DNA of 64,000 nt from a virus, in the IMG/VR virus record IMGVR_UViG_3300045988_066369, positions 88,892-152,891 of that record; one strand, given 5' to 3'. Position numbers and translations under genes: made by a program. Under the pieces are notes generated by a model that searched no databases, was not told the DNA's origin, and saw only the letters and a list, made by a program, of their open reading frames with translations. Positions 7,305-63,853 of this stretch are shown one piece after another (the first letter of the stretch is position 1; each line of letters begins with the position of its first letter).

Positions 7305-8114
7305 TTATTTACAAACGTCTATTACAGTTAAGTTCTCGTTGCTGGGACGATAATTAATATCCCTATGAGAATTAGATACAATAACCTGGTCAAAATTATT
7401 ACACATATTAATCAGACCTTTATCATTAACTGCGTGACATACGATTATGATAAACTTGCTATTTGGATATCTCTCTTTGAGAACCTTAAGCTCTCCTAGG
7501 AAAGTTCCTCCGGCATCACACAAGTCATCAATGAACACAAATGTAGAATAGTAGCAATTCTTAGACTCCTCTATTTCAAAGGACTCAATTCTTCCAGTCT
7601 CTAGATTTCTTTCCTTTTTGAAGACTAAATAACCATAGTGAGAATAGTTACTTCCATATCTGTCCTTCGCCCCATGGTCTGGGAACACGATATTACTTTG
7701 GGCTGGAATCCAAGAGTGGTGTCCAAATTCCCAAGGTAAACATCTGTCACCAAGAAGATGAAAAGTTCTACTAGAATGTGCCTCAAGAACATATATGTTT
7801 CTATAGCCTAAGCTATTTAACATATTACATACTACTTTCAAGGAGAATGGACGATTAAAACTCATTACTCTATCCATACGCATAGACATTAAATAAGTAA
7901 TGTGTAAATCCCATTCTACTTCTTGTCTATCTAAAATATCTCCTACTTGCACTAAGAGGAATAAATCCTCAGTATTAGATATTCTACAAATGACATCAAT
8001 AGATTCCTTTCTGTTTAATTCCTCAGTAAGGAAAAACTGAGGCTCTCCATCAGGAAATCTAGTAACATCGTACTTAATTTCACTGATTTCCTTGTTGATT
8101 AAGTTTAATTTCAT
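7305..8114 (-). CDS. ribose-phosphate pyrophosphokinase (Prs)-like protein; candidate ADP-ribose pyrophosphokinase (Adps-like) of an NAD+ reconstitution pathway
   Basis: 269 aa; Prs-like N-domain (RFPDGEPQFFL, YLMSMRMDR) and PRPP-binding PRT motif VFIDDLCDAGGTF. Confidence 0.6.
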   Translation of the reverse strand: MKLNLINKEISEIKYDVTRFPDGEPQFFLTEELNRKESIDVICRISNTEDLFLLVQVGDILDRQEVEWDLHITYLMSMRMDRVMSFNRPFSLKVVCNMLNSLGYRNIYVLEAHSSRTFHLLGDRCLPWEFGHHSWIPAQSNIVFPDHGAKDRYGSNYSHYGYLVFKKERNLETGRIESFEIEESKNCYYSTFVFIDDLCDAGGTFLGELKVLKERYPNSKFIIIVCHAVNDKGLINMCNNFDQVIVSNSHRDINYRPSNENLTVIDVCK

Positions 8115-8544
8115 CTACTACATATTTTAAGATTTCATAACTTTCTTCCAGACCTGCCCTATCATCTAGGAGGATATTGTAATAAGGTTTCTTAGATTTA
8201 GAGAATATAGAACTACTAATGTTTGGAGCAGATAAAGTATTAGAAGTAATATTTGCTATTCCTAATCGCATACAAATTGTCTGCTTTGCCATAATTTTAT
8301 AATCATCTTCATCAGTGGTGAATAAAATCATTTCAAAACCTAGAAGTGAGCATTCTTTAAGTAGTTCTATAACGCAACTATAATCTCCGCCAGTATTATG
8401 GTAATCGAAAATAGTATTATCAAAATCGAAAGCGACTATTAGCTTTCCGTATTTATGATACTCTTCTAATAGTCGTTTCTTGCAAGCTTCTTTCCCAAAA
8501 GGATGATTAAAGTCCATGGTCAATTCTTTGTCTGATTTCTTCAA
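8080..8544 (-). CDS. HAD-superfamily phosphatase-like protein
   Basis: 154 aa; HAD motif I AFDFDNTIFD. Confidence 0.45.
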   Translation of the reverse strand: MKKSDKELTMDFNHPFGKEACKKRLLEEYHKYGKLIVAFDFDNTIFDYHNTGGDYSCVIELLKECSLLGFEMILFTTDEDDYKIMAKQTICMRLGIANITSNTLSAPNISSSIFSKSKKPYYNILLDDRAGLEESYEILKYVVDEIKLNQQGNQ

Positions 8545-10057
8545 GAGAATATTCTTTCTTCAAGATACCATCTTCAAAGACAGTCTCTAAGCATCCCTCT
8601 TTTTCCTCCTCGATTGAGACCTGGTCGGTAGCAGTATACTTCCCATCCAGACATTTATAGACAGCAATCAAACCTTTCAAAGAGTTCTTAGTACCATCAT
8701 CAGTTTTAGGATGTTTGAAGATTTCTTTCAATTCGCCATTTACTACGCAAGCAGTAGCCTTAATAGCAAACCCAAGACTATCTCTACTTGCATACTGATA
8801 GGAATATGAACCTACTCCCAGAACGAGATTACAAGCCGCCATATGAGCGTTTTCTAATCTCAAGTAGATTTGCTTTTGACGTTCCAGAGTAATAGAATCT
8901 CCATAAAGCAGACCAACCTTAGTGCTAGGATAGCGGTAATCCTTTGAAGTAGTATTCCATCCGAAGATTTTACCAAGCATATAATATGCCCCATAATATT
9001 GACCTTCGGACACTTCAACATACTCTGCATCGTCGTTAAACGGAGCATAGCAGCAATAATACTTACCTTCTTTCATTCTGGTATTGAAGTGAGGATTAGT
9101 TCTCAACCCGCAGATTATATCTACTGGGTCTCCACTATCAGGACGGATTACTACTCTACCATCACGAGCCATAATGTCTTTCTTCAGCTTGGGTAAGAAA
9201 TTTTCAATTACATTCCAGAAATCCCAAGTATCAGATACAATAGAAACAAACCCAGAAGGATACAAATCATTAATTAGACGTTTGAAAGTGCCTAGCTCAT
9301 CTTCCTCCCCTCCAGCACACATTACAGAGTGTTCTGTTGCTGGAACTGTAGCAGCAATCAATTCCTTGTCTGAATTAGCTCCATAATATTCTTCCAGGGC
9401 AGCAATAGCTGGAATAGTCTCACTTCCCACAAAAGAAGTCATATGCGCCATACCAGATATGATTGCAGCTTCCATTCCCGCCATACCTCGCATTGAGAAA
9501 TCATGACAACAAAAACCAAGATTTACATCTGTTGGAAAACCAGTCTTGCAAGCATGACGATGTAGCTCTTTCTTATAGAGCCTAGCTCTAGTAGCAGATG
9601 TGCACGGCATCCACAAGGTACAGCTGATAATAGTCTCTAAGTAGTTAGTTAACCAAAAGAACTCGGGTAGGGTATTTGTAATGGTCATCATGGGAACCCG
9701 AATAGGGCACACAGAACCTTCAGGAAGAGCCTTTATGCGAATTGGTAGATACCCAAGGTCATATAAAGCTTCAATATGTCTGTACCCAACGGATTCAATA
9801 CCAACAAAGTTGTTTACTCTACGATAGAACATCTCCACAGCTTCCTTCTTTGGTAAATTAAAGAAGTTTTTCTCAAACTGTTTAATGAGATATTCTTTGA
9901 TTAGGTATTGAATACCAAATACTACTGAACCTTCGGTTGCTTCTGGGAAGTATTTATTACTTCTAGGAGTCCAGTTACTATAAACTTGTTCAGTACCTTC
10001 GGGGTACATTCTGTGATGGCCCAATTTGTAACCATCTGTAGCATTAATTATTTCCAT
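8507..10057 (-). CDS. nadV: nicotinamide phosphoribosyltransferase (NAMPT/NadV family; possibly Namat-like)
   Basis: 516 aa; blocks matching NAMPT: ATDGYKLGHHRMYPE, LPEGSVCPIRVP...WLTNYLETI, HDFSMRGM, VPATEHS, VIRPDSGDP. Confidence 0.8.
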   Translation of the reverse strand: MEIINATDGYKLGHHRMYPEGTEQVYSNWTPRSNKYFPEATEGSVVFGIQYLIKEYLIKQFEKNFFNLPKKEAVEMFYRRVNNFVGIESVGYRHIEALYDLGYLPIRIKALPEGSVCPIRVPMMTITNTLPEFFWLTNYLETIISCTLWMPCTSATRARLYKKELHRHACKTGFPTDVNLGFCCHDFSMRGMAGMEAAIISGMAHMTSFVGSETIPAIAALEEYYGANSDKELIAATVPATEHSVMCAGGEEDELGTFKRLINDLYPSGFVSIVSDTWDFWNVIENFLPKLKKDIMARDGRVVIRPDSGDPVDIICGLRTNPHFNTRMKEGKYYCCYAPFNDDAEYVEVSEGQYYGAYYMLGKIFGWNTTSKDYRYPSTKVGLLYGDSITLERQKQIYLRLENAHMAACNLVLGVGSYSYQYASRDSLGFAIKATACVVNGELKEIFKHPKTDDGTKNSLKGLIAVYKCLDGKYTATDQVSIEEEKEGCLETVFEDGILKKEYSLEEIRQRIDHGL

Positions 10058-10872
10058 TCTAATTTTTTGTTAAAAGTTATTTCTTTTACTTCTTCAGTTT
10101 CGAGTTTTCCACCTTTGATAAAGTATTGGTGAATAAGAGTATTAATTGTTCTTGCTCCAAGAGTATTATTGCGAAAAGAGCTTTCAAGATACCCTTTCAA
10201 ATCACTAATGACTTGTTCTCTATTCACATTAAAGAATAAGTCAAGATAATTCTGTAACAAGTCTGAACACTCCAAGATAGAATACAAATCCTCTAGAGTG
10301 AGAGGTTTAGTATTGTAGATTAATCCTACTCTTCCAAGAAACTCTGTTTTAACTCCAAAGTCTCTTAGTCTATCTAATGTAATGTGAGGCTCATTATTGA
10401 ACGCTCCGGCAAACACAAATAGTACATTATCAATAGGGACTGATATGTACTTCCCATAATCGCCAAAAACACTAGTAGTATCAGACTCTAAAAGTTTGAG
10501 AAACTCGTTCTGTACACTGGCAGTAGATTCATTAGCCAGTTGGCTATTAGTGTTTCCGTTGATGAAAAGTTTATCAAACTCGTCTACGAAGACTACAATA
10601 GGTGTGTGACTATAGTTAACAAGTGGAGATAGAATTTTGCTTAAACTATTTCCAGAAATACCCTCTTTAGTTATTTGAGCTGCATTAACTTCTAGAAAGC
10701 TAAGTTCATTCATATCACATAACTGTTTAATAGTAAAGCTCTTACCAGACCCGCTCTCACCTGTAAGAATAAAGTGCGGTCTTATCTTGCAATTACTATT
10801 TACAAATACCTGAAATATTCTATTAACTTCCTTAATTAACTTGTCTTGCCCTATTATCTTACTCATAGTCAA
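10048..10872 (-). CDS. P-loop ATPase (AAA-like)
   Basis: 274 aa; Walker A LTGESGSGKSF, Walker B VVFVDEFDK. Confidence 0.5.
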   Translation of the reverse strand: MTMSKIIGQDKLIKEVNRIFQVFVNSNCKIRPHFILTGESGSGKSFTIKQLCDMNELSFLEVNAAQITKEGISGNSLSKILSPLVNYSHTPIVVFVDEFDKLFINGNTNSQLANESTASVQNEFLKLLESDTTSVFGDYGKYISVPIDNVLFVFAGAFNNEPHITLDRLRDFGVKTEFLGRVGLIYNTKPLTLEDLYSILECSDLLQNYLDLFFNVNREQVISDLKGYLESSFRNNTLGARTINTLIHQYFIKGGKLETEEVKEITFNKKLEWK

Positions 10873-11371
10873 TTTTCAATAAATATTTAATATTACCTCC
10901 GGCACTCAAATGCCTAAAGCATTTAGTTACGAAGTCCTTGGTTTCGGGATGTATAGCTCTAGGTGAACTTAGAAATTTAATCCACCAGTTGTACTCACTC
11001 CCATAGGTAAAATCTTTATTATAGGTTCTCCCAGCAGCCAGATAATCACAGACTAATTCCAAAGCATATTTTCTTGGCATTTTCGCTGGAACTCCTCCTT
11101 CATCTAAACTATGAACCCAATATTCATAGTGATGTGGATTTCTTCCTCGATGATGTAGGAAGGTTTCAGAATATCCGTGTATGTTTTTCTCATTAGCTAG
11201 AGGACTAATAGTATCGTCCCAATACTTTATTGACCTACTAAATTCAGTATAGCTAAACTTAGACCAGTCATGTACTATTCCCTGCCAATAAAGACCTAAC
11301 TGGAAACAATAGCGTGCTACCCAGTATTTATGCTTAATAATCCTAATTAGATGTTTAAATATTCGTGTCAT
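10859..11371 (-). CDS. hypothetical protein (His-rich motifs)
   Basis: 170 aa ORF. Confidence 0.4.
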   Translation of the reverse strand: MTRIFKHLIRIIKHKYWVARYCFQLGLYWQGIVHDWSKFSYTEFSRSIKYWDDTISPLANEKNIHGYSETFLHHRGRNPHHYEYWVHSLDEGGVPAKMPRKYALELVCDYLAAGRTYNKDFTYGSEYNWWIKFLSSPRAIHPETKDFVTKCFRHLSAGGNIKYLLKIDYE

Positions 11372-48190: not shown

Positions 48191-48507
48191 ATAATTTATT
48201 ACTATATGGGACTCCAGTAATGGCTAACCCTACTAAGGCTTATATACTTATGACTCAAGAACCTACTGAAAAGATGCCAAAGAAATGGATTAAAGCAATA
48301 TTTACTAAACCTTTAGTAATATTGAAGAGTATATATTTCCATATATTTGGAATTAATCAAGATTTAGCAACCACAAGATTAAATATTTGTAATACTTGTC
48401 CTCATAAATTATAGACTTCATTTGGAGAAGTATGTGAGGAGTGTGGTTGTATACTAGAGAACAAAACTAGAATAGAAGATGAACATTGTGATTTATGTAA
48501 ATGGTAA
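48169..48507 (+). CDS. Cys-rich protein; track ORF ends at TAG (48412-48414) but frame continues with further CxxC motifs to TAA
   Basis: ...CNTCPHKL(TAG)TSFGEVCEECGCILENKTRIEDEHCDLCKW*. Confidence 0.45.
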
Positions 48508-48515
48508 AATGAATT

Positions 48516-49118
48516 ATGGAAACTTTAAGAACAGAATTGAACAGTAATGAGAAACTAGCACTAGCTATAACTGGTATGGAAGGTACAGGACAGCACCTTA
48601 TAGTAAATGGAGAAGCTGCAGATAAAACTTTATTAAGAGAAAAACAGGAAAAATTCAATACAGCAGTAGATGAATTAGAAGATAAATTCTCTAAACATAA
48701 TGCAGCTTTAGAATCTTACGCCAAATCATTATCTGAGGATATGAATGGTGTAGAAATTATGCCTATGTATGGGTATGCATTAATTAAACCTTTCGAACAA
48801 AATCCGTTTCAAAAAATTAAAACTACTAAGAGTGGATTAATTACAGACTTAGGTGGGTTTGCTCCAACATATAAATCTAATGAAACAGGAGAAATAGAAG
48901 AAGAACAACAATTTATTAAAGTGGGTACTGTTATTGAGGTTGGGTACAAGTGTGAGTTCCTAAAACCTGGAGATATAGTATTCTATACAATAGCTAGCGA
49001 GTGCATGGTTCCGTTCTACAAGTTTGGATTTGTTGTAGTTAATGAGAACAGAATTATGGCTGTAGTTAACGAAAAGCTAACTGAAAGAAGAAACGAATTG
49101 AAGTATGGAAACAATTGA
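48516..49118 (+). CDS. protein with GroES-like C-terminal domain (co-chaperonin/gp31-like)
   Basis: 200 aa; ...ALIKPFE...TKSGLIT...VGTVIEVG...LKPGDIVFY...IMAVV pattern typical of GroES fold. Confidence 0.4.
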   Translation: METLRTELNSNEKLALAITGMEGTGQHLIVNGEAADKTLLREKQEKFNTAVDELEDKFSKHNAALESYAKSLSEDMNGVEIMPMYGYALIKPFEQNPFQKIKTTKSGLITDLGGFAPTYKSNETGEIEEEQQFIKVGTVIEVGYKCEFLKPGDIVFYTIASECMVPFYKFGFVVVNENRIMAVVNEKLTERRNELKYGNN

Positions 49119-49328
49119 TGAAAAAGTTTATTTTAAGCCTGGGGATTGTGTTACTTTACGGTAGTGTAAAGTAATGCATTCTCCAGTTATGCTTGTTCTA
49201 AGAAGAGAAGCAGCTTTATTTAGAGATAACCAAGGATTACGAGGATTAAGATGTAGATGGTTTACTGATTCCGGACTTATGTAGGAAGCAGTGTTTAATA
49301 CTAAGGATTTAATTAAAGTAGAAGAGTA

Positions 49329-49910
49329 ATGGCTAACTAGGAAGAATTACAAAAAGCATTTATAGCATATCTAATACAAGATGCCGCTGCGTAGGGAATA
49401 CAAGTACAATCTGAATAGGATTTACAAGCTTATGCTGAACAATTAGGAGAAGACGGCATTAAAGCTAAGTATCAGGAATTTATGCAGAAAATGCAAGGAG
49501 GAGTAATGGCTAGGCTTGGAGCTAAGCTTGAGTATTATAAGAAGCTAAAAGGAGTATGTCCAGAAGGAGAAGAGCTTGTATATTTTAAGCAAGGCGGTAG
49601 AATCTGTAAAGCTTGCCAGAAAGCACAAAAAGGAACTAAAGTTACTAAGAAAGCTAATGAAGTTGATAAATTTAAGGCTGGAAGAGCTTAGTATAAGAAA
49701 GATATGAAATCTGCTAGAGACGAAGCCTCAAGAGATTCTATATCAATCAATAAATACAATGATTAGGAAACTATGGCCAATAAGGGACATAAGGGTAATT
49801 TCCAGGGAGGAAAATGGGTTCCTGACAGAAAACAATATGCTAAGAAAGACGCTTGTGGTTCCAAAATGAAAGTCAATAAGTGCGGTTCCAAAATGAAAAA
49901 GAAATAATAA
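49329..49910 (+). CDS. Lys-rich hypothetical protein, 5 in-frame TAG, terminated by TAA TAA
   Basis: Own translation from ATG 49329; track ORF 49482..49691 is an internal TAG-to-TAG fragment. Confidence 0.55.
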
Positions 49911-49938
49911 GATTATCTAATGTGTATGATAATGATTA

Positions 49939-50505
49939 ATGATTATGAATGTATTTAACTATAACACTTTAACTAAATAGCTAGAAATAAATGAACCAGA
50001 GATATTGCTAGTTAAGGAATTTAAGGCTTTAATCTAGAGGGATAAATCTGCAGAAAAGGATAGAGCTACTAGAGAACTATCTTACATTTATTTAGCTATA
50101 GACTGGAAAAGTCCGTACAGTTAGTATTCGGAACATGAACGACATGACGAAGCTATTAGTGATTCTGGATTGACAGAGTCAGAATTTAATGACCCTATAT
50201 TTAGAGAAGCTTGTAGGAAATACAGAGCGTTACAAGATTCAAACAAGTCAATAAAATTACTAGAAGCAGCTAAAAGAGCTGCAGACTAGTTTATTGATTA
50301 TTTCGAAACTATTGTAGATTTAAATGAGCGTGATAATAACGGCAAACCAGTATTCCAGGCTGAAAAAGTAATGAAGGAAATGGCTACCCTTCACAAAGTT
50401 CATGAAGAACTCATAACACTAGAAGACTAGGTTAAGAAAGAACTTACTGAACAATCTACTGTTAGAGCTGGAGCTGTGGATGGTTTTGACCCAGGAGACT
50501 TTTAA
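49939..50505 (+). CDS. hypothetical protein upstream of terminase (possible small terminase subunit), 5 in-frame TAG
   Basis: Own translation MIMNVFNYNTLTK(TAG)LEINEPEILLVKEFKALI(TAG)RDKSAEKD..., ends TAA 50503-50505. Confidence 0.45.
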
Positions 50506-50507
50506 TT

Positions 50508-52871
50508 ATGCCAAGAAAAAAGATATTACCTGAAGAAATATAGAATATTGTAGATTAGGTAAGAGAAAAAGAATAGAAAGAGGATGCTAAAGAAGCTAGA
50601 GAATTAGTATAGAAAATAAGAGAGGAAAGGGTCAGAAATTCTGACTATTGGGATGTTAAAATAGGAGATAAAATAGAAGTATTTGACCCTACCTTATCTT
50701 ATGAAATAACTGGATACAGACCTATTGACGAAACTCATGGATTGGACTTTAATCCAGATTGGTTTACCGAGACTAGGGAAGTATATAAACGAACTGGTCA
50801 ATACTGTCCCTACCTTAGAGATAGTAAGCGGTACAACGAATTTTGGAAAGAGCAATATAGAAGATGTAAGTATGGAATGACAGTTAATGGATACACCATT
50901 ACTGGAGATAATTACTTCTTCTTAAATTTCTATTAGTTACCTACTATTGACTAGTAGAAAGCCTCTGGTGAGGGTACTGATAATGACTTCCCAATATTCT
51001 TTGCATCACATTATATGTTCTTTCATTATCTATAGATGGCTAGGGTGCTACACAAGCACGCAGCTTTAATGAAAGCTCGTTCTATTGGATTCTCTGAAAT
51101 AAACGCCTCTCTTTCTGCTCGTATGTACTCTGTTATTAGAAGAAGTAGGGTTATGATTACTTGCTTTAATGATACCTTCCTTAAGGGTACCTTTAGTAAG
51201 TTTGACAATGCTCTTACATTCTTAAATACCTGTACTGGAGGAGGATTTTTTAAATTGCGACTTATTGACCAGGATTTGAGAAAGAAATCAGGTAAACAAA
51301 TCAAAATAAATGGTTAGTTTGAAGACGTAGGATTTAAATCTGAGGTTGTAGCAATTAACGGAGCTAAACCATCTAACATTCGTGGAGACCGTGTAGATTT
51401 ATTAATATATGATGAAGCTGGTTCCTGGCCTGGACTTGATACCGCTGTGGTACAAGGTCAAGAACTTTGTGAAGTTCAAGGTATGCCTCGTGGAACAATG
51501 TTGTTTGGAGGTACTGGCGGTGATATGGGTGCTCCTCTAGAGGGCTTAAAAAAGATTTACTATAATCCAAGAGCATATAAGATTCTTCCATTTAGACATA
51601 ATTGGACTTAGGATGGGACTACTATAGAGAGTGGATTCTTTATTCCATACTTTATACAATCTTTGAATCCAGAATTTATGGACCACAGAGGAGTGTGTAA
51701 TACTGTAGAATATAAGAAATTCTTATAGGAGGAGCGAGATAATCTGTTAGCTGTACCAGAAGACTACCTAAAGAAATGTGCTGAACGTTGTTGGAATGCA
51801 GAAGAAGCATTTAATCTAGAAGGTGTTAATAAATTTAATAAAATTTTAGTTGCCGAATAGATAGCTAATATAAGACTTAAACAAATTGGTCCAAGACCCG
51901 AATGTGGTTATATTGATTATTTTTACAAAAATAATAAACATACTTAGGATAACATTGATGGCTTTAAATGGATTCCTAATAGCAATGGTAAAGTAAAAAT
52001 TCTAGAGCATCCAATATGGTCTGACTTATATAAAGAACAAATGGAAAAGCTTAGATAGGAAGCAGAAAATAATGGCTAGGATTTTGAAGTTCCAGTTTAT
52101 AAAGAGATGCGAGACTTATACGTAGCAGGTATAGACGGTATTGATATTGGAGCGAATTAGACTTCTAAGGAAACCAGAGATCCGTCTGATTTCTGCATAA
52201 CGATTAAGAAACGTGCGTTTGGTATGAATGACCCTCAGTATGTTGCTATGTACAAGGATAGACCTGGAGACATCAGAGAAGCCTATAAAATAGCTATGTG
52301 TTTAGCTCGCTATTATAATTGTAAAATAAATATAGAAGCTACTCGTATGGGTATGGTTACTTGGGCTAGAGAAAAAGGATGCCTTAACTATTTTATGAAG
52401 CGCCCAAGAGCTACTCTAACTGATGTCAGAAATGGAACTACTAAATAGTATGGAACTCCTGCTACAAAAACTATAATTGAATAGCATACTGATTTAACAG
52501 CCGCCTTTATAGAAGACTATTGCCATACTATATGGTTCGAAGAAATGCTAGAATAGTTTACTGCATATAATGATGAAAATAAGGGTAAGTATGATATTGT
52601 AGCCGCTGTAGGTATGACTGAGTTGGCAGACCAAGAGCTATCAGGAAGACAGCCCGTACTTGTGGAGAAAGAAGTTGAATAGTTCCAAGATTTTGGTTAC
52701 TATTACGACGAGAGAGGAATTAAAAGATTTGGAGTTATTCCAACTAAGAAAACTCCTGAACTTAATATGCAAAGAAACGAATATGATGACCCATACAGAG
52801 TTGAAACAAGTGATCCTAGAATATATGAGGGACTTGTACAAAATGGAGTATATAGGCGGACTAGATATTGA
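50508..52871 (+). CDS. terL: terminase large subunit (ATPase + RNase H-like nuclease), about 20 in-frame TAG codons, ends TGA
   Basis: Continuous frame-0 reading with TAG as sense; nuclease motif LYVAGIDGIDIGAN(TAG)TSKETRDPSDFCITIK, ATPase-region ARSIGFSE, LLIYDEAGSW; track ORFs 50742.., 51036.., 52224.. are fragments of it. Confidence 0.7.
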
Positions 52872-53062
52872 GAGTTTAGACCCAGTTGGGTATAAAGTCT
52901 CTTTTAACTTTGATAGGTCAGAAATGCCATTAGTAATAATAGCAGATTTACCAGACGAAGAATTTCTGCCATTTATTAAGGAAGAATTAAGAAGTAGGAA
53001 GTTACAAAGAGTTAAGTATTATAACGCTACTAAACTTCCTCCAGAACAACATAATTTATGTT

Positions 53063-55234
53063 ATGAAAGAGAAGGAATTGATAGACAAGACAAACGAGGC
53101 TATTGCGGAACTTGTATATGATAAGTATGAGTTACAGAAAGCTTATAATTATTATAATGGTAAAAGAGATCCTGAATAGTTCCGTTATCTGGAAGAAAAC
53201 TTCGGAATAGGTAGCCCCACTTCGGTAGAGTTTACGCCTTTATTAAAGAAACACGTAGATGCTCTAGTTGGAGAATATTTAGGAACTCCTATACTTCCGA
53301 AAATTTCTTGCAAAGATTCAGATACTATCAGTAATATAACAAGAGAAAAATAGCTAGAAATAACCAAGGGAATAGTAAAGTTTTTGAAAGACCATTTAAG
53401 TAATTCAATTCTTAAGTTTATTGATGGCAAGGATATTACTGATAAAGCTGTAAAGACTTAGTTAGATAAAATTATATAGGATATTGACCAATCCTTTATT
53501 TCTCAATATGAAATTGCAGCTTAGAATATAGTACATTATATTATGCAATCCAGAGAAACCGATTTAATTACTAAGTTACGTTAGTTACTAACAGACCTAT
53601 TAATTACTGGTTATACATTCTTTAGAGTGAAATCATCGGCTTCTGGAACTAATATTGAAATAGAGGTATTAAACCCACTTAATACATTTGTTGATAGAAA
53701 TCCAGAATCTCCATATGTAAGGAACTCATATAGAGTTGTAGTAAGAAAGTGGATGAGTAAGAGTTAGATTTTAGCTAAATATGGCAAAGAAATATCTAGA
53801 GAAGATTTAAGAAGACTAAAAGATGAATGGCGAGCTGATGATTCAGCTGCTGTTTATAGAAGAGTATATGGAGATACTTGTACAGTAGTAAATGAAGATT
53901 AGAATCATGAAACCATTCCCGGCTATCCAGACAATGAATATAGTGCTCATAGGTTCTAGTTAATCCCAGTCTATGATGTTGAATGGATTGAAACAGATGA
54001 TGATTTTGTGATGTAGAGATACAATACTATTAGAATAGGAGAAGAGATATATATTCTTAGAGGATTAGACAAGACTGTTATGAGATCTAAAGATAATCCC
54101 AACTTCTGTTCTTTATCGGTAAATGGAGTATATTTCTTAAATCGCTCTTAGTAGCCTTATTCTCTTATATTAAAATGTGCACATCTGTAGGATAGATACG
54201 ACTTATTAAACTATTATAGAGATAATCTAATAGCTAATAGTGGTACTGCCGGAGTTATTATGGATATGTCTCTGTTGCCTACCAACTTAGGAGTTAAATG
54301 GCCAGAACGAGTACAAAAATGGTTAGCCTATAAAAAAGGTGGTATCATGTGGATAGACTCAAGCCAAGAAGGTAGGAATGATGGACAGCAAGCTCCAAAC
54401 TAGATATATAACGGATTTGATGATACCTTAAAAGCATAGGCTGTATAGGCTATTGAATTAGCTATTCAATCAGTAGAACAAACTACATCATCAATAACTG
54501 GAGTATTTAGGGAACGACTTAACGGTATAGAAACTAGAGATGCAGTTACTAATATTAAGTAGGGAGTAGCTAACTCGTATATAGTAACTAAGCACTATTT
54601 TTAGCAGATGGATTTAATAACCTGCGAGATACTACTAGATAGTCTTAATTAGGCTAAAGTTACTTATAAGAAAGGATTAACTGGAACTATTATACTTGGG
54701 GATAAATATCAACAGATATTCACCGCACTTCCTGAGTATTTTACTGTTACTGACTACGATATTCATATTACTGCTAGTTCAGAAGTGATGGAAGATCTAT
54801 AGACTATAAAAGCAATCATTCCAGAGTTCGTAAAAAGTCAACAGATGGACCCAGATATTATTTTTGAGGCTCTTACATCTAAGAGTCTGACAGACCTTAA
54901 ATATAAGGTTAAGAAAGCTGTTCAAGTTCGCAAAGAGGAAAATAATCAGCTTCAGCAACTACAAGAAAAATTAGAAGAAACTTCTCAATAGGCTCAGTAG
55001 TTATAGCAAGAATTATAGAAAGCTCAGCAAAAGATTGAAAGCTTAGATGAATAGAGACTAGGATTAGAATAGTAGAAGATGCAGTTAGAATATAAAGTTA
55101 ACTGGCTTAAAGCTCAGTCTGATTCTACTTATAAAGATAGACAAATGGATATTGAAGAAAAAAGAACTGAAATAGAGTTGGCTTAGCTTCATGATGGAAA
55201 TCCATATAATGACAAAATAAGACAAATACATTAA
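53063..55234 (+). CDS. portal protein (TAG-recoded, about 25 in-frame TAG), ends TAA
   Basis: Continuous frame-2 reading from ATG 53063 (MKEKELIDKTNEAIAELVYDKYEL...); position immediately after terL; about 720 aa. Confidence 0.6.
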
Positions 55235-55235
55235 T

Positions 55236-55967
55236 ATGGCAACTGGAACAATTGTATACAACAAAGATTAGCAGTAGATTTATCCTATCTCTGATGGGAC
55301 AGTAATTATAAGTAATGCTTCCGGTTCTAAATCAAATGTAGAAGACGACCTAAAAAAATTATTTAAGTAGGTATCAGATTTATCCGGTTCAAGTGAAGCA
55401 GTTAATAGTATTATTATTAAAATACATTATCTCCCTGCTAATACTGCCGATGAATCTGAAATAAAATTATCAAGTAAGTAGTGGTCTGATACTTTTGAGC
55501 TTCCAACAGAAGAGAATCCGTATATATGGAAAAGAACTAAATTTACTTTTTAGGGAGCTGATGAATCATAGGGAACTACTATCTATGAAATAGTAGCGAG
55601 TGATGTCTCTACTATTATATAGACTATATATACTAGAACCGAGGGAATAACACCAGTTATAGAATATAAATAGAAAACAGATGAGGACGGAAATCCGCTG
55701 TATATAGATGCTGAAGGGAAAGAAACTACAGAAGTTACTTCTCTAAAGGCATATGACTATAACTACTATTGGAATGGTCAGCCTTCTTCTGGACTAGATA
55801 AACTACCTCCGACCCCAGATGGATATTCTTATATCTGGACAGATTATCCTCAAGATATTAGTTTATCATTTACTTCCGTCTTCATGTCTAGACGAATAAG
55901 ACAAGCAGGTAAATGGAAACCTTTTTCTACCCCTGCTCAATATGGCTAGTGGCCTATTGAGTCTTAA
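55236..55967 (+). CDS. structural/hypothetical protein (TAG-recoded)
   Basis: Own translation MATGTIVYNKD(TAG)(TAG)IYPISDGTVIISNASG..., ends TAA 55965-55967. Confidence 0.5.
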
Positions 55968-55977
55968 TTATTACAAT

Positions 55978-56709
55978 ATGGAATTTAGTATTGATATACA
56001 TACCCAAATTAATGGGGAAATACTGATAGAAGATTTCTCAAAAGAATATGGCTAGTATATTGATGAAGATGTAGAGGTAGTAACTTCTTACGACTCCTAT
56101 AAGTATAGTGAGAGTGCTACCTTGAATACTATCATCAAAGTTAGTATAAGTGATGCTACTCTGATAGATGTCCTACTTAATGACCATACAGAAGACTTAG
56201 ACTCGTGTATGTTTAAGGTCAAGGATGATGGTTATTACGTAGTAGACCATATCATTATTCCTAATATGAAATGGTATGAAAATTCATCGGACGAATACAA
56301 GGAATACTATGAGACTATCTATGTTACTGATGGAGAAAAATTATATAAAGAAGTAGAAGGTAAGCTAGAAGAGTGTACAGTTAAAGAAGTTCTTGAACGA
56401 AACATAGAAGGAACTACTATAAAAAAATGTAAGGTAGATGTTTTCTTTACAGGAAACTTGTAGTAGTGTTACATTAATTATTGTAAGAAACTCTTTGATG
56501 CTTTACTAAATAAGTGTCTAACTAGAGATTAGGAAGCAGATATATTTGCTCGAGATTTCATATGGATGACTCTTAACATTATAGATTATTTAATATGCTT
56601 TAAACAATTCATGGAGGCTGAGAGATTACTAGCGATGTTCCGTACCTGTGGAGGATTCTGTGATAATCACCACCATGGACATAAACGTATAGGTTGTGGA
56701 TGCTCTTAA
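55978..56709 (+). CDS. hypothetical protein; contains tandem TAG TAG at 56461-56466, after which the frame stays open to a Cys/His-rich tail (CGGFCDNHHHGHKRIGCGCS) ending TAA
   Basis: Track ORF 56122..56463 is its internal fragment; alternative end at 56463 if TAG-TAG terminates. Confidence 0.4.
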
Positions 56710-56864
56710 GAGAAAGGCTATTAAAAGGTATGAGGATTTTCTAAGAAAACTCAAAAAGGGATATAAACCAGATTATCAAGATATTCTTAATCTAATTTGT
56801 TTTATTAACCTACCTGTAAGACTAGATAATCACGAATTTATTAAATAGCAATTATTAAACTAGA

Positions 56865-58439
56865 ATGATACAGTCTATTTACACTTCGGTAAGTAACGCA
56901 GATATAGTGCCTTGTGGTAAAAAGGGTAAGCCTATAAAATGTGAGCCTATACCTCTCTTAAGAAATAACTATTTAGGAGAATATAGGACAGAACTAGAAA
57001 AAGCTAAAGTAAGAAAGAACTTAGGTATTGCTGATGAGTAGAGTCTATTGTGGGGAAACATTAGTGGAACCATAGAACTGCAAAAAGACCTAGTATAGTA
57101 TATAGAACAAAAATGGACCTATACTAGTGACGTTGCAGAAGGTATTAATACTGTGAAGGATGCCCTAGACTATGCCCTATACTTTATTAGTGAATATGAA
57201 TCTAATACAGAAGCAATAGAAGAACTGAAAGTCGATATAAGCAATATTAGAACTTCTATATCTGTATTGAAGGAGGATTTACAACGAGAAATTGATACTA
57301 ATAGAAAAGGGATTAATAATCTATCTGAAGAAATAGTAAAAATCAATGAAGCTATAGTTGAGTTGAATAATGCTATTGAGAATATAGATGTTGATAAAAA
57401 CATTCTTAATTGGATTAAGAATAGTCTCCAAAATTCCAAAACTATAGAACTAAAGGAAGATAATTCTTTAGAGGTGATTTTATCTACTTAGGAAGATAAT
57501 GCTATTCATTTAATAGAATAGGAGATTGGAGAGGAAACCTCTTCTATTATCCTTCCAGGTATCTATGTTAAGAATCTTGAACCTGCTCTAGAAGAAACAA
57601 AGAAAGAAGTATAGAAAACTTAGGAAGCACAACAAGAGACAAATACTAAAGTAGAAGCTAATACTGAAAGTATTACTAATATACAAACTAACTTAGAAAC
57701 TATAGCTACTTATTAGACAGAACTCCCAGATGATACTACTTCAACAGTAATTGAAGGGACTACAGTAGAGAAACTTAAGGGCAAGCCCTTTAATGAGATT
57801 ATTGATACTTTACTATTTCCAACAGTAGTTAGAGATTTAGTATACCCATAGCTTTATTATAGTTTTACTTCTCAAATAGTAGAAGTAGGAACTGCTTTAT
57901 TAACTCCTACACTTACATTTATAAAGAATGATGCTGGAGAAGAAACTGACAGACAAGAAACTATTACTTATAACAGTTCTCCTGTAGAGTCTGATACATA
58001 TAATTCTATTGGTACTTATACTCACTCTGGTACAGTGAGTTATGCCGCTGGAGAATATTTGATAAACAATAAAGGAGAAGTTACAGATAAGAGAGTAGAA
58101 GCTGGTTCTATTTCCGCTACCGCTTAGGTAGTAGCCACATATCCTTGGTATTCTGGTAATACTGATAGTGTGATTAAATAGGCGCTAGTTCCTTTTGGAC
58201 AATCGTCTGGAACTATCACATTTTCACTAAGTGGTAAGGCTATTATAAAATTGCCAGGAAGTAACACATAGTTAAATTCATTTACCGTAGATGGGGGACT
58301 TAGATATTTAAATGTAGACCTAAGTGGTTGGGAAACGTCTACCGAGTAGATAAATGGATTTACTTACAAGGTATGGACTAAGAAAGATACTTACTCCTCA
58401 GCATTGCCACATCAAATTAACTTTATTCTATCACAATAA
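56865..58439 (+). CDS. structural protein, 524 codons, TAG-recoded (coiled-coil segment)
   Basis: Continuous frame-0 reading MIQSIYTSVSNADIVPCGKKGKPIKCEP...; track ORF 57153..57491 is a fragment. Confidence 0.55.
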
Positions 58440-60283
58440 TGGCATTTAAATATACAGGTGATGCTACCTTAGGTGTCGCTTTAACCGTAGAAACTCCGAA
58501 GCCTCTCGATAATAGAACAGTCGTTAATAACTTAGACGAACTTTATTCTATTCCAGAGAAGTATGCTTATCAAGGTATGACCGTTGCTAACATAGATAAC
58601 GGAAATATTTATATGCTAATTGATAAGTCTAAGATTAAATACAAGGAAGGATGGAAAGCATCCTATGAATCTATCTAGATAATCACCTGTACAGAGGCTG
58701 AATATAAAGAATGGTCTGAGAATACTACAGACGATTTTAGGCCCATAGATGAAAGTAAAACGTATCTTCATGCTGAGACATATTATTATATATATGAGGA
58801 TAGCTTAGACGATGACTAGTTTTACCTATCCGCGGAATGGGGAAAAAAGATAGAAGAGCAATTAAAACAGAAGGCCCTTAATACTACTGTAGTATAGATT
58901 AGAACAGACTTAGATAACACTATTGCCAGCCTATCAGATTATGCTACACTGGAAGAATTAACTACTAATTATGTCTCTAATGATTCTTTAGCTCTATCCC
59001 TGACTAAGTATTATACTAAGGAAGAAACAGACGATATTTTCGTTACTAAAGAAAGTCTTAGAGGAGAGGGAATGGAAGGAGATGATTTTGTCTTCGTTAC
59101 AAAGAAAGAATATGAGGAAGATTAGTAGGCCATCCAAGACGAGTTAGATAAAACTCTTAAGGTAGATGGAGATGGTTCCTTAGAAAGCATCACTGTTGGA
59201 TAGATAAAATCTCCTGTAGTAGAGGGAGAGGGAGAGAGCTAGCTAGTAGTAGACGTTAGGTCTGAAGGATTATTTATAGGTGAAGATTAGATTGCTACTG
59301 AATCGGATATTCCGAACTTAGTAACATTAACTGAAGAAGAGTATCTAAAGTTAGTAGAGGAAGGGACGGTAGAGCCTGATACATATTACTATGTATATGA
59401 CGTCACAAATGATGCAAAGGTTTATATTACTAAGGAATATTTGGATTAGAATTATCATACTACCAATCAATATCAGTCCTGGGTTGCTACAAATTATTAC
59501 TCCAAGAAGTAGATTGATGAAATAGTTCAAGGTTTGCAAAAACTTGAAAACTACGTTACTACAGAAGATATTAAGGCTTATTATACTATTTAGCAGGTTG
59601 ATGACAAATTTCTTACTAAGGAAAATGCTCAGTCTACTTATGCTACTCAATAGTCATTATCTGATTTATCAGATTAGATAGCCGAAGATTACGTAACAAA
59701 AGAAAGTTTAAGGGGAGACTCTCCTGAAACCGGAGATGATGATTTCATATTTGTTACCTAGAAAAAATATCAGGATGATTAGGCTGCTGCTGCTAAAGAA
59801 TTTAGCACTGAGCTTTTGAAATCTACATCAGTAGAAACTTCTGATATTACTATTTAGAAAATTGGAGAAAAAGAAGTACAATAGGGAACAACTGGAGAAC
59901 CTTCTGAGGAAACAGGAACTGAGCAAGTTATTGAGAGTTCTGTTAAACTTACCACAGAAGATAACAGGCTATTTGCTGGAGGCAAGCAAGTTGCTATTAC
60001 TGAAGAAGTACCAAAACTTGTATGCTTACCACAAGCTGATTATGATGACCTAGTTGAGAATAGTAAGACTGAAGAAGATACTTATTATTGCACCTATGGA
60101 GAAAAAGATTTACAAGATACTGGATATGTTAGGAGCGAATATCTTATAGAGAGATACTACACCAAAGCTGAGGTAGAAGAACTAATTAGCTAGGCCGTAG
60201 CCGAATTGTAGAAAAAGATAGACGCTTTATAGCCAGGTTCTAGTGTAGAGGTAGGTGGAGAAAATGAACAATTAATATTTTAA
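58439..60283 (+). CDS. tail/fibre-like protein with internal sequence repeats, 614 codons, TAG-recoded, ends TAA
   Basis: Continuous frame-2 reading; repeats TKESLRGEG..GDDFVFVTKKEYEED / TKESLRGDSPETGDDDFIFVT(Q)KKYQDD and YYYIYEDSLDDD / YYYVYDVTND. Confidence 0.55.
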
Positions 60284-60288
60284 ACAAT

Positions 60289-60498
60289 ATGGGAACAATT
60301 TATATTGAAGGACAGTTTAAGAGTTCTGCCAAACCAGTAAAAGTTGTTGGAGGAAGTATAGGAGGCTCTGGAGTAGACTAGGAAGTTCTCAAGAACTATG
60401 CTACTAAAGCAGAATTGTAGAAGGCTGTTGAGGACCTAACTGCTTCCATAGAGGGAATAGATCACGATGTAGTTGATGAAACTTTAATAATACAATGA
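60289..60498 (+). CDS. small hypothetical protein (2 in-frame TAG), ends TGA
   Basis: MGTIYIEGQFKSSAKPVKVVGGSIGGSGVD(Q)EVLKNYATKAEL(Q)KAVEDLTASIEGIDHDVVDETLIIQ. Confidence 0.4.
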
Positions 60499-60499
60499 T

Positions 60500-62317
60500 A
60501 TGGCAGCAATCAAATCTATAAAGGTTGGGGAAACCACATACGATTTAAAAGCTACTTACGATGGTGCTGGAAATGTTATAGATACGACATATGCCAAGGC
60601 TAATGCAATTCCAACTAAAACTTCTTAGTTACAGAATGATAGTGGATATTTAACTGAGCATTAGGATATTAGTGAATTAGCTACTAAGGGTGAGCTTGAA
60701 GGCAAAGTAGATAAGGAGTTAGGAAAGGGACTTTCTGAAGCCAATTATACTGAAACTGAGAAGGAAAAGTTAAGTACTATAGCTAATAATGCTAATAATT
60801 ATGTACATCCAACTACTTCTGGAAATAAACATATTCCATCTGGAGGAGCGTCTGGATAGATGCTAGTTTTCTCAGCAGATGGTACTGCTGAATGGGCAGA
60901 TTCAAGTTCTAAGCTAGAAGAGCAATTTACAGCGCTAAATGAGGCTTGGGAAGAATTGTAGAAGGCACAACAAAAGCTTGATAAGTAGATTACTGAGCTA
61001 AATAGTAATATGGATTTATATTCCTATGGAGTAGAATGGGATGTTACAGTAGCATCTCCGGAACTTACTAGAATAGGTAATCCTTTGCTGCATAAATCTC
61101 TTCCTATTCAATCAGCGTATAGAGGTTGTGTAGCAAACAATGATGTAGTAAATTACTATCTGTTTCCAGATGACTGGTCTTATAAAGAAGACGGAGAAAC
61201 TCCATCTGTCTTAGATGGAACTGATGGAACAGTAAGAGTTAATACTCCTAAATTTTATGGAAAATCTGGCAGCGATGGAAACAAAAGATGGGTTAGAACT
61301 TCTACTGTCAAAATTGATGATTCATGGGTAGAAATTCCTGAACTATTAATAGATGCATACAGAAGTACAGTTGATACCACAGTCTCCGCAACTCCAAAAG
61401 CTGTATCAGTAGTTAATACTACTACTGCATTTAGAGGTGGAGGAAATAGAGCTAACTACGATGATTATCTAACTACAGAATTAGAAACTAAGGATATATT
61501 CAGAAGTGATTTAGGAAAGCCTAGAACTAATATTTCTAGAGCTACTATGAGAACATATGCAACAAATGCTGGTTCAGAATTGCTATGCTATGAATATTAC
61601 AAATGGATATTCTACTGGAATTATGTCATTGAATATGCTAATTTTAATTCTTAGGCTGCATATAATGCAGAGTTAACTGCGGATGGATATCATCAAGGGG
61701 GTTTGGGACCTGGAGTTACAGATTGGGCTAACACAGCTACAAGTTGGTCAGGATATAATGCAACATATCCACTTACGCCTTGTGGTTACTGCAATGAATT
61801 TGGTAACTTCACTGGAGTAAAAGATTTAGTTATTCCAGAATGTACAGCTCAAGATGGCACAAATACAGTAGCAACTCATACATTTAAAGTACCTCGCTGG
61901 AGAGGGTTCGATAATCCGTTTGGAGACATTTGGACTAACCTGGACGGAGTAGTTATAGTGAGAGCAGCTGCTAATGAGATTAGCACTGTCTATACAACTA
62001 CTAACGTATCGGAATTTACCGACGTAGTTGGAGAGAAAACCGTTGCAGGATACGAAGTAGCATCTGATGGTTATATTAAGGCATTTGACTTAGGTGAAAC
62101 CGCTGAAATAATTCCATCCGCTGTTGGAGGAAGTGCTACTACTTATATTTGCGATTACCATTACTGCAACGCAAGCAGCACAGCGCTTCGCACGCTGCTG
62201 GTGGGCTGCCGCGCGAGTAGTGGCGGCGCTGCGGGTCTCGGCTCTTTCTATTCTAACTATGGCGTCGGCGGTGCCGCTTCCGATGTCGGGTTCAGGACTC
62301 TGAATAGAGTATCTTAA
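60500..62317 (+). CDS. DGR target: tail-fibre-like receptor-binding protein, 606 codons with at least 6 in-frame TAG, C-terminal variable region
   Basis: Continuous frame-2 reading from ATG 60500 through track ORFs 61010..61654 and 61703..62317; fibre-like motif HIPSGGASG(Q)MLVFSADGTAEW; C-terminus encoded by GC-rich VR. Confidence 0.7.
62194..62293 (+). repeat. DGR variable repeat (VR) at 3' end of target gene
   Basis: 100-nt GC-rich segment; base-by-base alignment to TR (offset +201) shows 24 mismatches, all at TR adenines. Confidence 0.85.
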
Positions 62318-62394
62318 GATATACAATATAAAAATCGATTTAGATGATAAATCGTAGGATATTACTTCTAAAAACCGTTGATTGGCAAAAAAGT

Positions 62395-62494
62395 ACTGCT
62401 AGTAGGCAGCAACGCGAATAATGGCAGCAATGCAGGTCTCAGCTATTTCAATTCTAACAATGACGTCAGCAATGCCAATTCCAATGTCGAGTTA
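62395..62494 (+). repeat. DGR template repeat (TR), non-coding, AAT/AAC-rich
   Basis: 31 adenines of which 24 are substituted in VR (16 A->G, 5 A->C, 3 A->T); zero non-A mismatches. Confidence 0.85.
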
Positions 62495-62634
62495 TTATAT
62501 ATTTAGAAACATTTTATTATTTTTTTTTAGTTTGCTAAGTAATATCCTTGCCTCTAGGCAAAAGATAACATAGTGTTGAATGAAGGGTGTTAGTAGGTTA
62601 ACTCTCGAACGCTTCCGATGAAATATATAAAAAA

Positions 62635-63846: not shown

Positions 63847-63853
63847 AATACAA

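Follow-up and report, generated by a model that had tools for sequence, protein, structure and literature searches.

The locus at positions 7305 to 10057 of the analyzed viral DNA (the window, 64 kb in all) is probably a NARP1 counterdefense operon of a crAss-like gut phage in which a HAD-superfamily phosphatase forms a conserved third component. Judged from its sequence, the core of the locus is very probably NARP1: the two outer genes belong to the Adps and Namat families, and we infer their enzyme activities from validated homologues. The NARP1 core is of an already known kind; the triad containing the HAD gene is a new variant. No published description of such a triad was found, and the literature search returned only the unrelated Metis MisB. 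The three genes are as follows.

8507..10057, minus strand: Namat (nicotinamide ADP-ribose transferase, NAMPT-like), 516 aa
8080..8517, minus strand: HAD-superfamily phosphatase, capless, accessory third gene, 145 aa
7305..8114, minus strand: Adps (ADP-ribose pyrophosphokinase, Prs-like), 269 aa

In the proposed pathway, a host defense would cleave NAD+, leaving ADP-ribose (ADPR) together with nicotinamide. Adps would then use ATP to pyrophosphorylate ADPR at its 1''-OH, and Namat would combine the resulting ADPR-PP with nicotinamide to give NAD+ and PPi. The HAD protein, predicted from its motifs to be catalytically intact and from its position to be translationally coupled between the Namat and Adps genes, would strip the phosphate from phosphorylated ADPR species that Adps could not use, yielding ADPR.

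Organization of the locus

The gene order is Namat, HAD, Adps, and start and stop codons overlap at both junctions, by 11 nt (Namat/HAD) and 35 nt (HAD/Adps) in the junction sequences. The program-made list of open reading frames gives the HAD gene as 8080..8544 with a TTG start (154 aa); the ATG at 8517 is the more likely start because the homologues are about 143 to 145 aa long. Adps and Namat lie on the same strand, 392 bp apart with one gene between them; in the original definition of NARP1, homologues of the two lie close together, within 10 genes (bioRxiv 10.1101/2024.02.11.579819). Upstream, the junction sequence shows a 10-nt overlap between an AAA ATPase gene and Namat. This gene and a DUF5662 gene, also upstream, were considered as module members and rejected, since they occurred in only 14 and 57 fetched loci, respectively, and are missing from distant crAss-like loci, which have only Namat, HAD, and Adps in common with the window. 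The module lies within a standard-code block, and the late genes of the phage appear to be TAG-recoded.

Namat and Adps form a probable NARP1 core

The earlier note had recognized a NAMPT homolog at 8507..10057 and a Prs homolog at 7305..8114 carrying the motif VFIDDLCDAGGT. Both were recovered, the former on the minus strand with 524 bits to NF006629 (cutoff, 405) and the latter with its motif and 176 bits to phrog_619; these homologies (E = 1e-157 and 1e-51) are far beyond chance.

The Namat protein contains the PF04095 and PF18127 domains and scored 610 bits against phrog_448. Among solved structures, it scored 488 bits against 9w5x/9w5w, approximately 226 against mammalian Nampt, and 198 against Xanthomonas Nampt. 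We identify 9w5x/9w5w as SpβL1 Namat, since their numbering agrees with all of the residues that PMC12774641 names. Against NARP2-type proteins, no more than 211 bits and 30% identity were reached, and the bit scores of 2,023 phage records split into two groups. The SCH signature of Namat has been described as G-S-X-Φ-X-Φ-X-Φ-T-R-D with X aromatic, and its SCL loop as combining a stacking residue with Arg, Lys, or Tyr as the third residue (PMC12774641). In the window, the SCH motif, which forms the adenine clamp, reads GSYSYQYASRD, with all three X positions aromatic (Y418, Y420, and Y422) and Ser for Thr; its NARP2-type counterpart is GGGLLQ..RD (GGGLLQQLDRD). In the SCL loop, S33-N34-K35-Y36, an aromatic residue comes after Lys, an arrangement described as Bas63-type. 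The catalytic His (H243) and 12 of the 13 nicotinamide/NMN contact residues are identical. The remaining one, D215, is Glu (E213), as it is throughout the Namat proteins of the crAss-like clade; D215 hydrogen-bonds nicotinamide, and D215A costs 8-fold activity (PMC12774641). An insertion of approximately 30 aa is present at about positions 318 to 355. In the neighbor-joining tree, the protein fell in the NARP1 Namat clade with Adps-associated proteins, apart from NARP2-type Nampt, in 100% of 500 bootstraps.

Nine NCBIfam Prs models match the Adps protein, none of them above its cutoff (the best, TIGR01251, gave 58 bits versus 113), and the best solved PRPS reached only 34 bits. It is 25 to 26% identical to the validated Adps of ICP1 and DyoEdafos. 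The reported hallmarks of Adps are the catalytic Lys185, the acceptor residues, and a remodeled PP loop (PMC13586617), and these were found in the window protein apart from F92. The ICP1 residues F18, R87, H121, D161, K185, D212, D213, C215, D216, and F221 are all kept, those from R87 onward as R79, H113, D146, K167 (the catalytic Lys185), D196, D197, C199, D200, and F205; the adenine-contact residue F92 is replaced by Met84. The C-terminal α11-α12 regulatory/filament module of Prs is missing (269 aa versus 315 in Escherichia coli Prs), and the alignment stops before this segment. An HMM built from four divergent Adps sequences did not discriminate (window protein, 106.6 bits; E. coli Prs, 106.0 bits) and was replaced by a bootstrapped neighbor-joining tree with more Prs outgroups, in which the protein grouped with ICP1 and DyoEdafos Adps at 100% bootstrap, the outgroups being few (six canonical and two divergent Prs). 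The identification as Adps therefore draws on tree placement, model cutoffs, residues, and gene linkage.

The main alternative for the core is conventional PRPP-based salvage, NARP2-like or housekeeping, in which Prs would make PRPP, NadV or Nampt would make NMN, and a host or phage NMNAT would complete NAD+. The database labels of the two proteins, ribose-phosphate pyrophosphokinase and nicotinamide phosphoribosyltransferase, read this way; Namat keeps PRPP-dependent NMN synthesis in vitro (PMC12774641), the small Adps HMM did not set the window protein apart from E. coli Prs, and Mucilaginibacter pairs the same HAD family with a genuine Nampt-type/Prs-like pair. Such a pathway is nevertheless highly improbable here, given a Namat clamp in place of the Nampt GGGLLQ motif, a score against Namat more than twice that against any Nampt structure, the failure of every Prs model together with the loss of the Prs regulatory C terminus, and the lack of any NMNAT match within the 64-kb window. 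The earlier note had put NARP1 first, although it could not separate this by eye from a conventional NadV+Prs pair, and had named nesting of both proteins within housekeeping Prs and NadV clades as the outcome that would speak against it. The opposite was seen: neither protein nested with housekeeping Prs or PRPP-type Nampt, with both splits at 100% bootstrap, and the clamp and the failed cellular Prs models likewise support NARP1.

Genomic linkage of the HAD gene to NARP1

HAD motifs I to IV are intact in the middle protein, including the Asp nucleophile and the Asp+2 residue, on a Rossmannoid HAD fold, which places it in the HAD superfamily. Its family is an uncharacterized orphan: Pfam scans of 28 members gave no significant family, phmmer against the PDB gave no match, Foldseek of the model against the PDB gave no significant match, and the BFVD matches were unannotated phage HADs only. 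A profile search of the PDB returned 2obb alone (E = 0.008), a BT_0820 family HAD-type phosphatase. Membership in that family (NF046079) was rejected at 20.4 bits versus a cutoff of 165, and a literature search on BT_0820 gave nothing relevant. The nearest characterized fold is that of T4 Pnkp, a ribose 3'-phosphatase, and one Bacillus phage record names a HAD homologue polynucleotide kinase.

A single-sequence search of IMG/VR with the HAD protein gave close relatives only, and an alignment-based repeat was used. Among loci centered on a HAD homologue, 90 of the 97 from IMG/VR and 33 of the 66 from GTDB had both Adps and Namat within 6 kb, which amounts to 32 of 47 lineages defined at 70% identity. 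In every linked triad the three genes shared a strand. The median span was 2.7 kb, and at least four arrangements occurred (Namat-HAD-Adps, Adps-HAD-Namat, Adps-Namat-HAD, and HAD-Adps-Namat). Carriers include crAss-like phages, Bacillus phages, and bacterial clusters, with DAC15, cr126_1, and Bacillus phage Belinda as annotated examples; abundant human-gut crAss-like phages and Prevotella megaphages are among the HAD-bearing phages. In three bacterial lineages the linked HAD lies in chromosomal clusters adjoining NrtR, and some of these loci also carry Macro, ADP-ribosylglycohydrolase, and NADAR genes. The HAD gene adjoins the kinase gene, Adps, in nearly all lineages except those of Bacillus phages. 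The earlier note had correctly placed a small HAD gene between the two homologs, describing them as separated only by it; this gene seems instead to be a conserved third member of the module.

The linkage has its limits. Approximately 30% of the HAD lineages have no NARP1 nearby, some of them (L096 and L132) pairing HAD with a radical-SAM-like gene instead, and in a Lak-like locus (L088) HAD has Adps as its neighbor but lacks a Namat gene inside the 6-kb range. In Mucilaginibacter, HAD accompanies a conventional cluster of NadM with Nampt-type and Prs-like genes, which counts against a NARP1-specific role. No residues specific to NARP1-linked HADs were found, conservation being equal in 26 unlinked HADs. 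HAD was found in 82 phage records, versus 1,477 with an Adps homologue.

Comparison with known NAD+ reconstitution systems

NARP1 of phages Bas63, SpβL1, and ICP1 pairs neighboring genes of these two enzyme families (bioRxiv 10.1101/2024.02.11.579819; PMC12774641; PMC13586617). The window shares with it the Namat selectivity clamp, the catalytic His and most of the nicotinamide/NMN contacts of Namat, the PP loop and catalytic lysine of Adps, the loss of the Prs regulatory helices, and the clade in both trees. It differs from described NARP1 in the intervening HAD gene and the Namat-first order, and from the validated proteins in the Asp215 substitution and insertion of Namat and in the lack of a Phe92 equivalent in Adps. 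NARP2 (Nampt plus Nmnat, KVP40-type) likewise restores NAD+ with a NAMPT-family enzyme; the window, however, has the Namat rather than the Nampt motif and no NMNAT match in its 64 kb, and so does not fit NARP2.

Closer in layout is NARP1-AP of Vibrio phage Gary (Adps, Macro-domain Adpp, and Namat), which also has three genes with a small phosphatase in the same slot (bioRxiv 10.64898/2026.01.28.702374). HAD-bearing phages have hosts from genera that are listed as carrying aRES, and the window locus may work similarly. The phosphatase folds are unrelated, HAD in the window and Macro (an ADPR-1''P phosphatase) in Gary. No Macro (Poa1p-like) homologue was detected in the window by tblastn or HMM, and the locus is not NARP1-AP as defined. 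In mycobacteriophage DyoEdafos, the gene between Adps and Namat encodes RyDEP, an accessory enzyme that turns an ADPR derivative into ADPR (bioRxiv 10.64898/2026.05.28.727677). RyDEP is a glycosidase whose substrates are cyclic ADPR signals, whereas the middle gene of the window encodes a predicted phosphatase; neither the window nor any of the HAD loci contained a RyDEP homologue.

Possible roles of the HAD phosphatase

It is likely that HAD works with the NARP1 core. That it does so as a phospho-ADPR phosphatase feeding Adps has about an even chance of being right, the precedent being the position of Adpp in Gary and RyDEP in DyoEdafos between Adps and Namat, where each supplies NARP1 with ADPR. 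By yielding ADPR for Adps, HAD would therefore be the functional counterpart of the Macro-domain Adpp. One candidate substrate, though less likely than not, is ADPR-1''-phosphate, which RES-type NAD+ phosphorylases (aRES, for example) produce; 2'-phospho-ADPR or NADP+ is an unlikely substrate. We tentatively consider, as a possibility on the weaker side, that HAD evolved independently as a second ADPR-phosphate phosphatase, matching Adpp without the Macro fold. In Bacteroidota and Bacillota phages it would extend NARP1 to noncanonical NAD+ depletion (phosphorolysis by RES/aRES, or debris derived from NADP), and in the NrtR-adjacent bacterial clusters the same triad would recycle ADP-ribose. 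The Macro-containing NARP1 operons in Table S1 of the NARP1-AP report include no Bacillus, Bacteroides, or Prevotella phages, and its aRES table names all three among the host genera (bioRxiv 10.64898/2026.01.28.702374). This complementary host range could reflect lineage history. A strict reading in which HAD replaces Macro is weakened by six bacterial loci that carry both (L165 with a Poa1p-type and five with a MacroD-type domain). This co-occurrence speaks against a simple redundancy of HAD with Macro, and the two may not be equivalent.

The same six loci would be natural if the two phosphatases differed in function, for example if HAD belonged to the module and hydrolyzed the PPi of Namat/Nampt, or another shared by-product, thereby pulling the transferase forward. 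PPi is the sole product common to NARP1 and the conventional Nampt cluster of Mucilaginibacter, in which HAD is present, and HAD-fold inorganic pyrophosphatases such as BT2127 exist. This role is nonetheless quite improbable: inorganic pyrophosphatase is already abundant in hosts, the closest characterized fold, T4 Pnkp, is a ribose-phosphate monoesterase, and outside Bacillus phages almost every lineage has HAD next to the kinase gene, as does the Lak-like locus with no nearby Namat. HAD might instead be a 2'-phosphatase that converts NADP+ to NAD+, or 2'-phospho-ADPR (the NADase product of NADP+) to ADPR; we consider this unlikely, and phmmer, Foldseek, and the profile search of the PDB recovered no characterized HAD NADP phosphatase. 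A hitchhiking phage gene with no tie to NAD+ reconstitution, such as a nucleotidase or RNA-end phosphatase, would suit the lineages without nearby NARP1, the radical-SAM-like pairings, and the polynucleotide kinase label. Such a gene would hardly be expected to stay linked across four or more gene orders, both in Bacteroidota and Bacillota phages and in the NrtR-adjacent clusters of three bacterial lineages, to overlap both neighbors at its start and stop codons, and to be one of the only three genes common to the window and distant crAss-like loci; hitchhiking is thus very unlikely.

NAD+ depletion is among the commonest bacterial antiphage strategies, and phages counter it most often with NARP1. 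Accessory enzymes, Macro Adpp and RyDEP, have recently been shown to decide which defenses NARP1 beats. Were HAD irrelevant, the locus would be an ordinary, well-supported instance of NARP1. The linkage to NARP1 offers an orphan HAD family a testable function, and, if the proposed role is true, an unrelated third accessory enzyme family would add a further layer to the NAD+ arms race.

Organization of the module and its genomic context

The three minus-strand ORFs picked out in the earlier note were all recovered in the ORF listing. They are given here with the genes next to them and two tRNA genes.

Features of the window
8507..10057, minus strand, NAMPT-like gene, 516 aa
8080..8544, minus strand, small HAD-like gene, read from a TTG in the ORF listing; likelier start, ATG at 8517
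7305..8114, minus strand, Prs-like gene, 269 aa, containing VFIDDLCDAGGT
10048-10872, minus strand, AAA+ ATPase gene (PF00004; weak ClpX/HslU-like matches; phrog_5534, 387 bits)
10859-11371, minus strand, DUF5662 gene, preceding the AAA+ ATPase gene
42512-42582 (minus) and 44864-44936 (plus), tRNA genes of suppressor type on either side of the strand switch; one has anticodon CTA (that at the start of the plus-strand block), the other TTA

The ATG at 8517 is the likely start of the HAD gene because its 606 homologues are mostly 143 to 145 aa long. According to the junction sequences, the NAMPT-like (Namat) and HAD genes overlap by 11 nt and the HAD and Prs-like (Adps) genes by 35 nt, while the Namat start lies within a 10-nt overlap with the upstream AAA+ ATPase gene. 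These start/stop overlaps fit one translationally coupled operon. The AAA+ ATPase and DUF5662 genes were considered as further members and placed outside the conserved module, since just 14 of the fetched loci had the former and 57 the latter.

The only near-identical public phage record (99.4%) was MT836666.1, an unannotated 25.6-kb "Bacteriophage sp." from human feces. Among annotated phages, the module has its best relatives in the Crassvirales members DAC15 and cr126_1, from which we infer that the window phage is crAss-like. Namat, HAD, and Adps were the only genes that the window had in common with distant crAss-like loci. Among IMG/VR relatives (L018, L015, and L023), the module is mosaic: L018 is identical to the window in Namat (100%) and nearly so in Adps (99%), with HAD only 68% identical, and L023 shares 98% (Namat), 67% (HAD), and 42% (Adps). 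Recombination among phages that are otherwise nearly identical seems to swap HAD and, in some cases, Adps.

The module lies in a minus-strand, standard-code block. In the plus-strand block (44001-64000), reading TAG as sense lengthened the longest ORFs from 305 aa (standard code) to 793, 747, and 620 aa; no such gain was seen in the minus-strand block. A tRNA(CTA) gene lies at the start of the plus-strand block, and the whole window holds 22 tRNA genes. Thus, the late block from about 44 kb appears to be TAG-recoded. Recoding is known for crAss-like phages.

The NAMPT-like protein is of the Namat type by sequence

The definition of Namat combines a catalytic core like that of Nampt with an adenine "selectivity clamp," made up of the SCH motif GS-X-Φ-X-Φ-X-Φ-TRD (X, aromatic) and the SCL loop, whose third position is Arg, Lys, or Tyr (PMC12774641). 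In the window protein, the SCH motif reads GSYSYQYASRD, aromatic at each of the three X positions, and the SCL reads S-N-K35-Y36, in which an aromatic residue comes after Lys as in the Bas63-type arrangement. The corresponding SCH motif is GSFTYQHNTRD in the validated DyoEdafos Namat and GSYTYQYMTRD in a Namat from Felixounavirus, the genus to which Bas63 belongs; the NARP2-type motifs of phages nt-1 and IME-CF2 are GGGLLQQLDRD and GGGLLQEVTRD.

Against PDB sequences, the window protein scored 488 bits with 9w5x/9w5w and 387 bits with 9ke8, versus about 226 bits with mammalian and 198 bits with Xanthomonas Nampts. The 9w5x entry is SpβL1 Namat, because all residues named for that protein (D13, Y15, R40, F189 ... 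D400) match its numbering (PMC12774641). Two score groups were found among 2,023 phage records, NARP1 type at 290 to 455 bits and NARP2 type at ≤211 bits. In a neighbor-joining (NJ) tree of 29 sequences with limited outgroups, all 500 bootstraps (100%) set the NARP2-type proteins apart from the other sequences, and the window protein fell within the NARP1 clade. The NAMPT homologue proposed in the earlier note was thus confirmed and assigned to the Namat type by its clamp, its SpβL1 match, and this tree.

Compared with SpβL1 Namat, the catalytic His and 12 of 13 nicotinamide/NMN contacts are identical. The exception is D215 (GTD), which hydrogen-bonds nicotinamide and is Glu213 (GSE; codon 9419-9421) in the window. 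All eight crAss-like Namats of the set share this Glu, which none of the other Namats and Nampts examined has; the change may have no effect or may shift base preference. At Namat residues ~318-355 (window ~8993-9106), the protein is longer than SpβL1 Namat by an insertion of about 30 aa, at the site of a larger insertion (about 100 aa) in the Felixounavirus Namat.

The Prs-like protein and the choice between NARP1 and salvage

For Adps, the sequence evidence is weaker than for Namat because the family is very divergent. The window protein matched nine NCBIfam Prs models, each below its cut-off (at best 58 versus 113, with TIGR01251), scored ≤34 bits with any solved PRPS and 176 bits with phrog_619, and lacks the C-terminal α11-α12 segment of Prs. 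Pairwise BLAST gave 62 to 79 bits with the Adps of ICP1, DyoEdafos, Felixounavirus, and Belinda and 40 bits with Escherichia coli Prs. An Adps HMM built from four sequences could not tell the window protein (106.6 bits) from E. coli Prs (106.0 bits); therefore, an NJ tree was built with six canonical and two divergent cellular Prs, one of them from Parabacteroides. With these limited outgroups, all NARP1-linked Adps, including the window protein, split from all Prs in 100% of bootstraps. The same group holds the biochemically validated Adps of ICP1 (PMC13586617) and DyoEdafos (10.64898/2026.05.28.727677). Of the ICP1 residues, F18, R87, H121, D161, catalytic K185, D212, D213, C215, D216, and F221 are kept, and F92 is Met. 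At the final two positions of the PP loop, the window protein keeps the ICP1 residues, which in E. coli Prs are replaced by Ile and Leu.

Phylogenetic placement, one of the checks suggested in the earlier note, thus grouped neither protein with NARP2-type Nampt or cellular Prs. Within the 64-kb window, tblastn gave no match for NMNAT, Macro, ADP-ribosylglycohydrolase, NADAR, RyDEP, or NrtR (best E = 0.18). The lack of an NMNAT match in these 64 kb, together with the Namat motif, argues against the PRPP/NMN route. The NARP1 reading is preferred over a NadV+Prs pair, the alternative held open in that note, given the Namat clamp, the 100% splits in both trees, and the subthreshold Prs models. The NARP1 core has been known since 2024, and that of the window is very probably a further instance.

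An orphan HAD protein linked to NARP1

The HAD family is invariant at motif I (D31-F-D33-N-T35), motif III (K110), and motif IV (D118-D119), and motif II is Thr/Ser. A confident AlphaFold2 model (pLDDT, 90.8; pTM, 0.87) predicts a minimal capless HAD. By sequence and predicted fold, the protein represents an orphan HAD subfamily, because Foldseek, phmmer, and Pfam gave no significant match and NF046079 scored 20 against a cut-off of 165.

HAD was found in 82 phage records (54 Bacillus, 15 Prevotella Lak megaphages, and the rest crAss-like, Bacteroides, and a few others); any Adps homologue was carried by 1,477 of 50,697. DAC15 and cr126_1 are annotated with the order Namat-HAD-Adps, and Bacillus phage Belinda has Adps-Namat-HAD. 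Through the family alignment, 97 IMG/VR loci (with some redundancy) and 66 loci of GTDB genomes, each centered on a HAD homologue, were collected, and their ±6-kb flanks were searched by tblastn. Both Adps and Namat were present in 90 of the 97 viral and 33 of the 66 bacterial loci, counts that ignore kinship; five viral loci had neither, three of them cut by a contig end. After clustering, 32 of 47 HAD lineages were linked at 70% identity and 55 of 78 at 90%. In every linked triad the three genes share one strand; the triads span 2.7 kb at the median and come in at least four gene orders. In L088:5974-7307 and L087, Lak-like contigs of megaphage size, Adps comes directly after HAD, and Namat is missing from the 6-kb flanks. 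In two loci without NARP1, viral L096:5253-6441 and bacterial L132:5253-6384, a 243-aa ORF with a CxxxCxxC motif, putatively radical-SAM-like by eye, overlaps the HAD start.

In bacterial chromosomes, NrtR (Nudix and NrtR_WHD domains) occurred in 29 of the 66 loci and adjoins the triad in Flavobacteriia, Saprospiraceae, and Paenibacillus/Cohnella.

NrtR-adjacent Adps-HAD-Namat clusters
L123:4162-12391
L112:2182-7093
L109:3741-7105
L144:5181-8677

Macro, ADP-ribosylglycohydrolase, and NADAR genes join the triads of Saprospiraceae and Tenacibaculum, a neighborhood that, judged by gene content, is devoted to ADP-ribose metabolism. In Mucilaginibacter (L134:1478-6342; also L133, L135, and L146), the genes ahead of a HAD of the window family form a conventional cluster: NrtR, NadM-like NMNAT-Nudix, Nampt-type (GGALLQKVDRD), and canonical-like Prs. 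A Macro domain accompanies HAD in six bacterial loci. One MAG contig (L165:4139-6192), the only locus with HAD plus a Poa1p-type Macro phosphatase, carries this Adpp homologue, which shares 48% identity with the one in Acinetobacter phage phiAbaA1, along with Adps and a HAD cut by the contig end.

No link between a HAD phosphatase and NARP1 was found in the literature covered, with most subscription journals outside its scope, nor any report of NARP1 in crAss-like phages. The papers on NARP1, Namat, Adps, NARP3, aRES, and RyDEP do not mention a HAD phosphatase, "NARP1" and "haloacid" were co-mentioned only for the unrelated MisB, and a 2022 survey of viral NAD+/ADPr systems has HADs only in other contexts. 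The aRES preprint calls Macro "one of the most common" NARP1 neighbors (10.64898/2026.01.28.702374), so its authors may have seen others.

Possible role of the HAD protein

The slot between Adps and Namat, which HAD occupies in the window, holds a Macro Adpp in NARP1-AP and RyDEP in DyoEdafos NARP1. Adpp removes the phosphate from aRES-made ADPR-1''-P, which NARP1 alone cannot use (bioRxiv 10.64898/2026.01.28.702374), and RyDEP opens cyclic ADPR signals (10.64898/2026.05.28.727677). Since both deliver ADPR, a phosphatase in this slot would most simply free a phospho-ADPR for Adps.

By this analogy, the leading proposition, at about even odds, is that HAD feeds ADPR from a phospho-ADPR. In its favor, the Macro-NARP1 operons of Table S1 include no Bacillus, Bacteroides, or Prevotella phages, and Table S2 lists these genera as aRES hosts (10.64898/2026.01.28.702374). 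In addition, the nearest characterized fold strips phosphate off a ribose hydroxyl, and Lak-like L088 pairs HAD with Adps while its 6-kb flanks lack Namat. Against it, HAD coexists with Macro in the six bacterial loci, also accompanies the conventional Prs/Nampt cluster of Mucilaginibacter, and has the same conserved residues whether linked or unlinked. A pyrophosphatase or other helper is an improbable reading, and a wholly unrelated function is slightly less probable still. Regarding the substrate, ADPR-1''-P is a tentative candidate, and the 2'-phosphate of NADP+ or 2'-phospho-ADPR is a rather unlikely one. The probability left over by all of these readings goes to other NAD- or ADPR-related phosphoesters. 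If HAD does feed ADPR to the pathway, it would dephosphorylate a phosphorylated ADPR, and the resulting ADPR would go to Adps.
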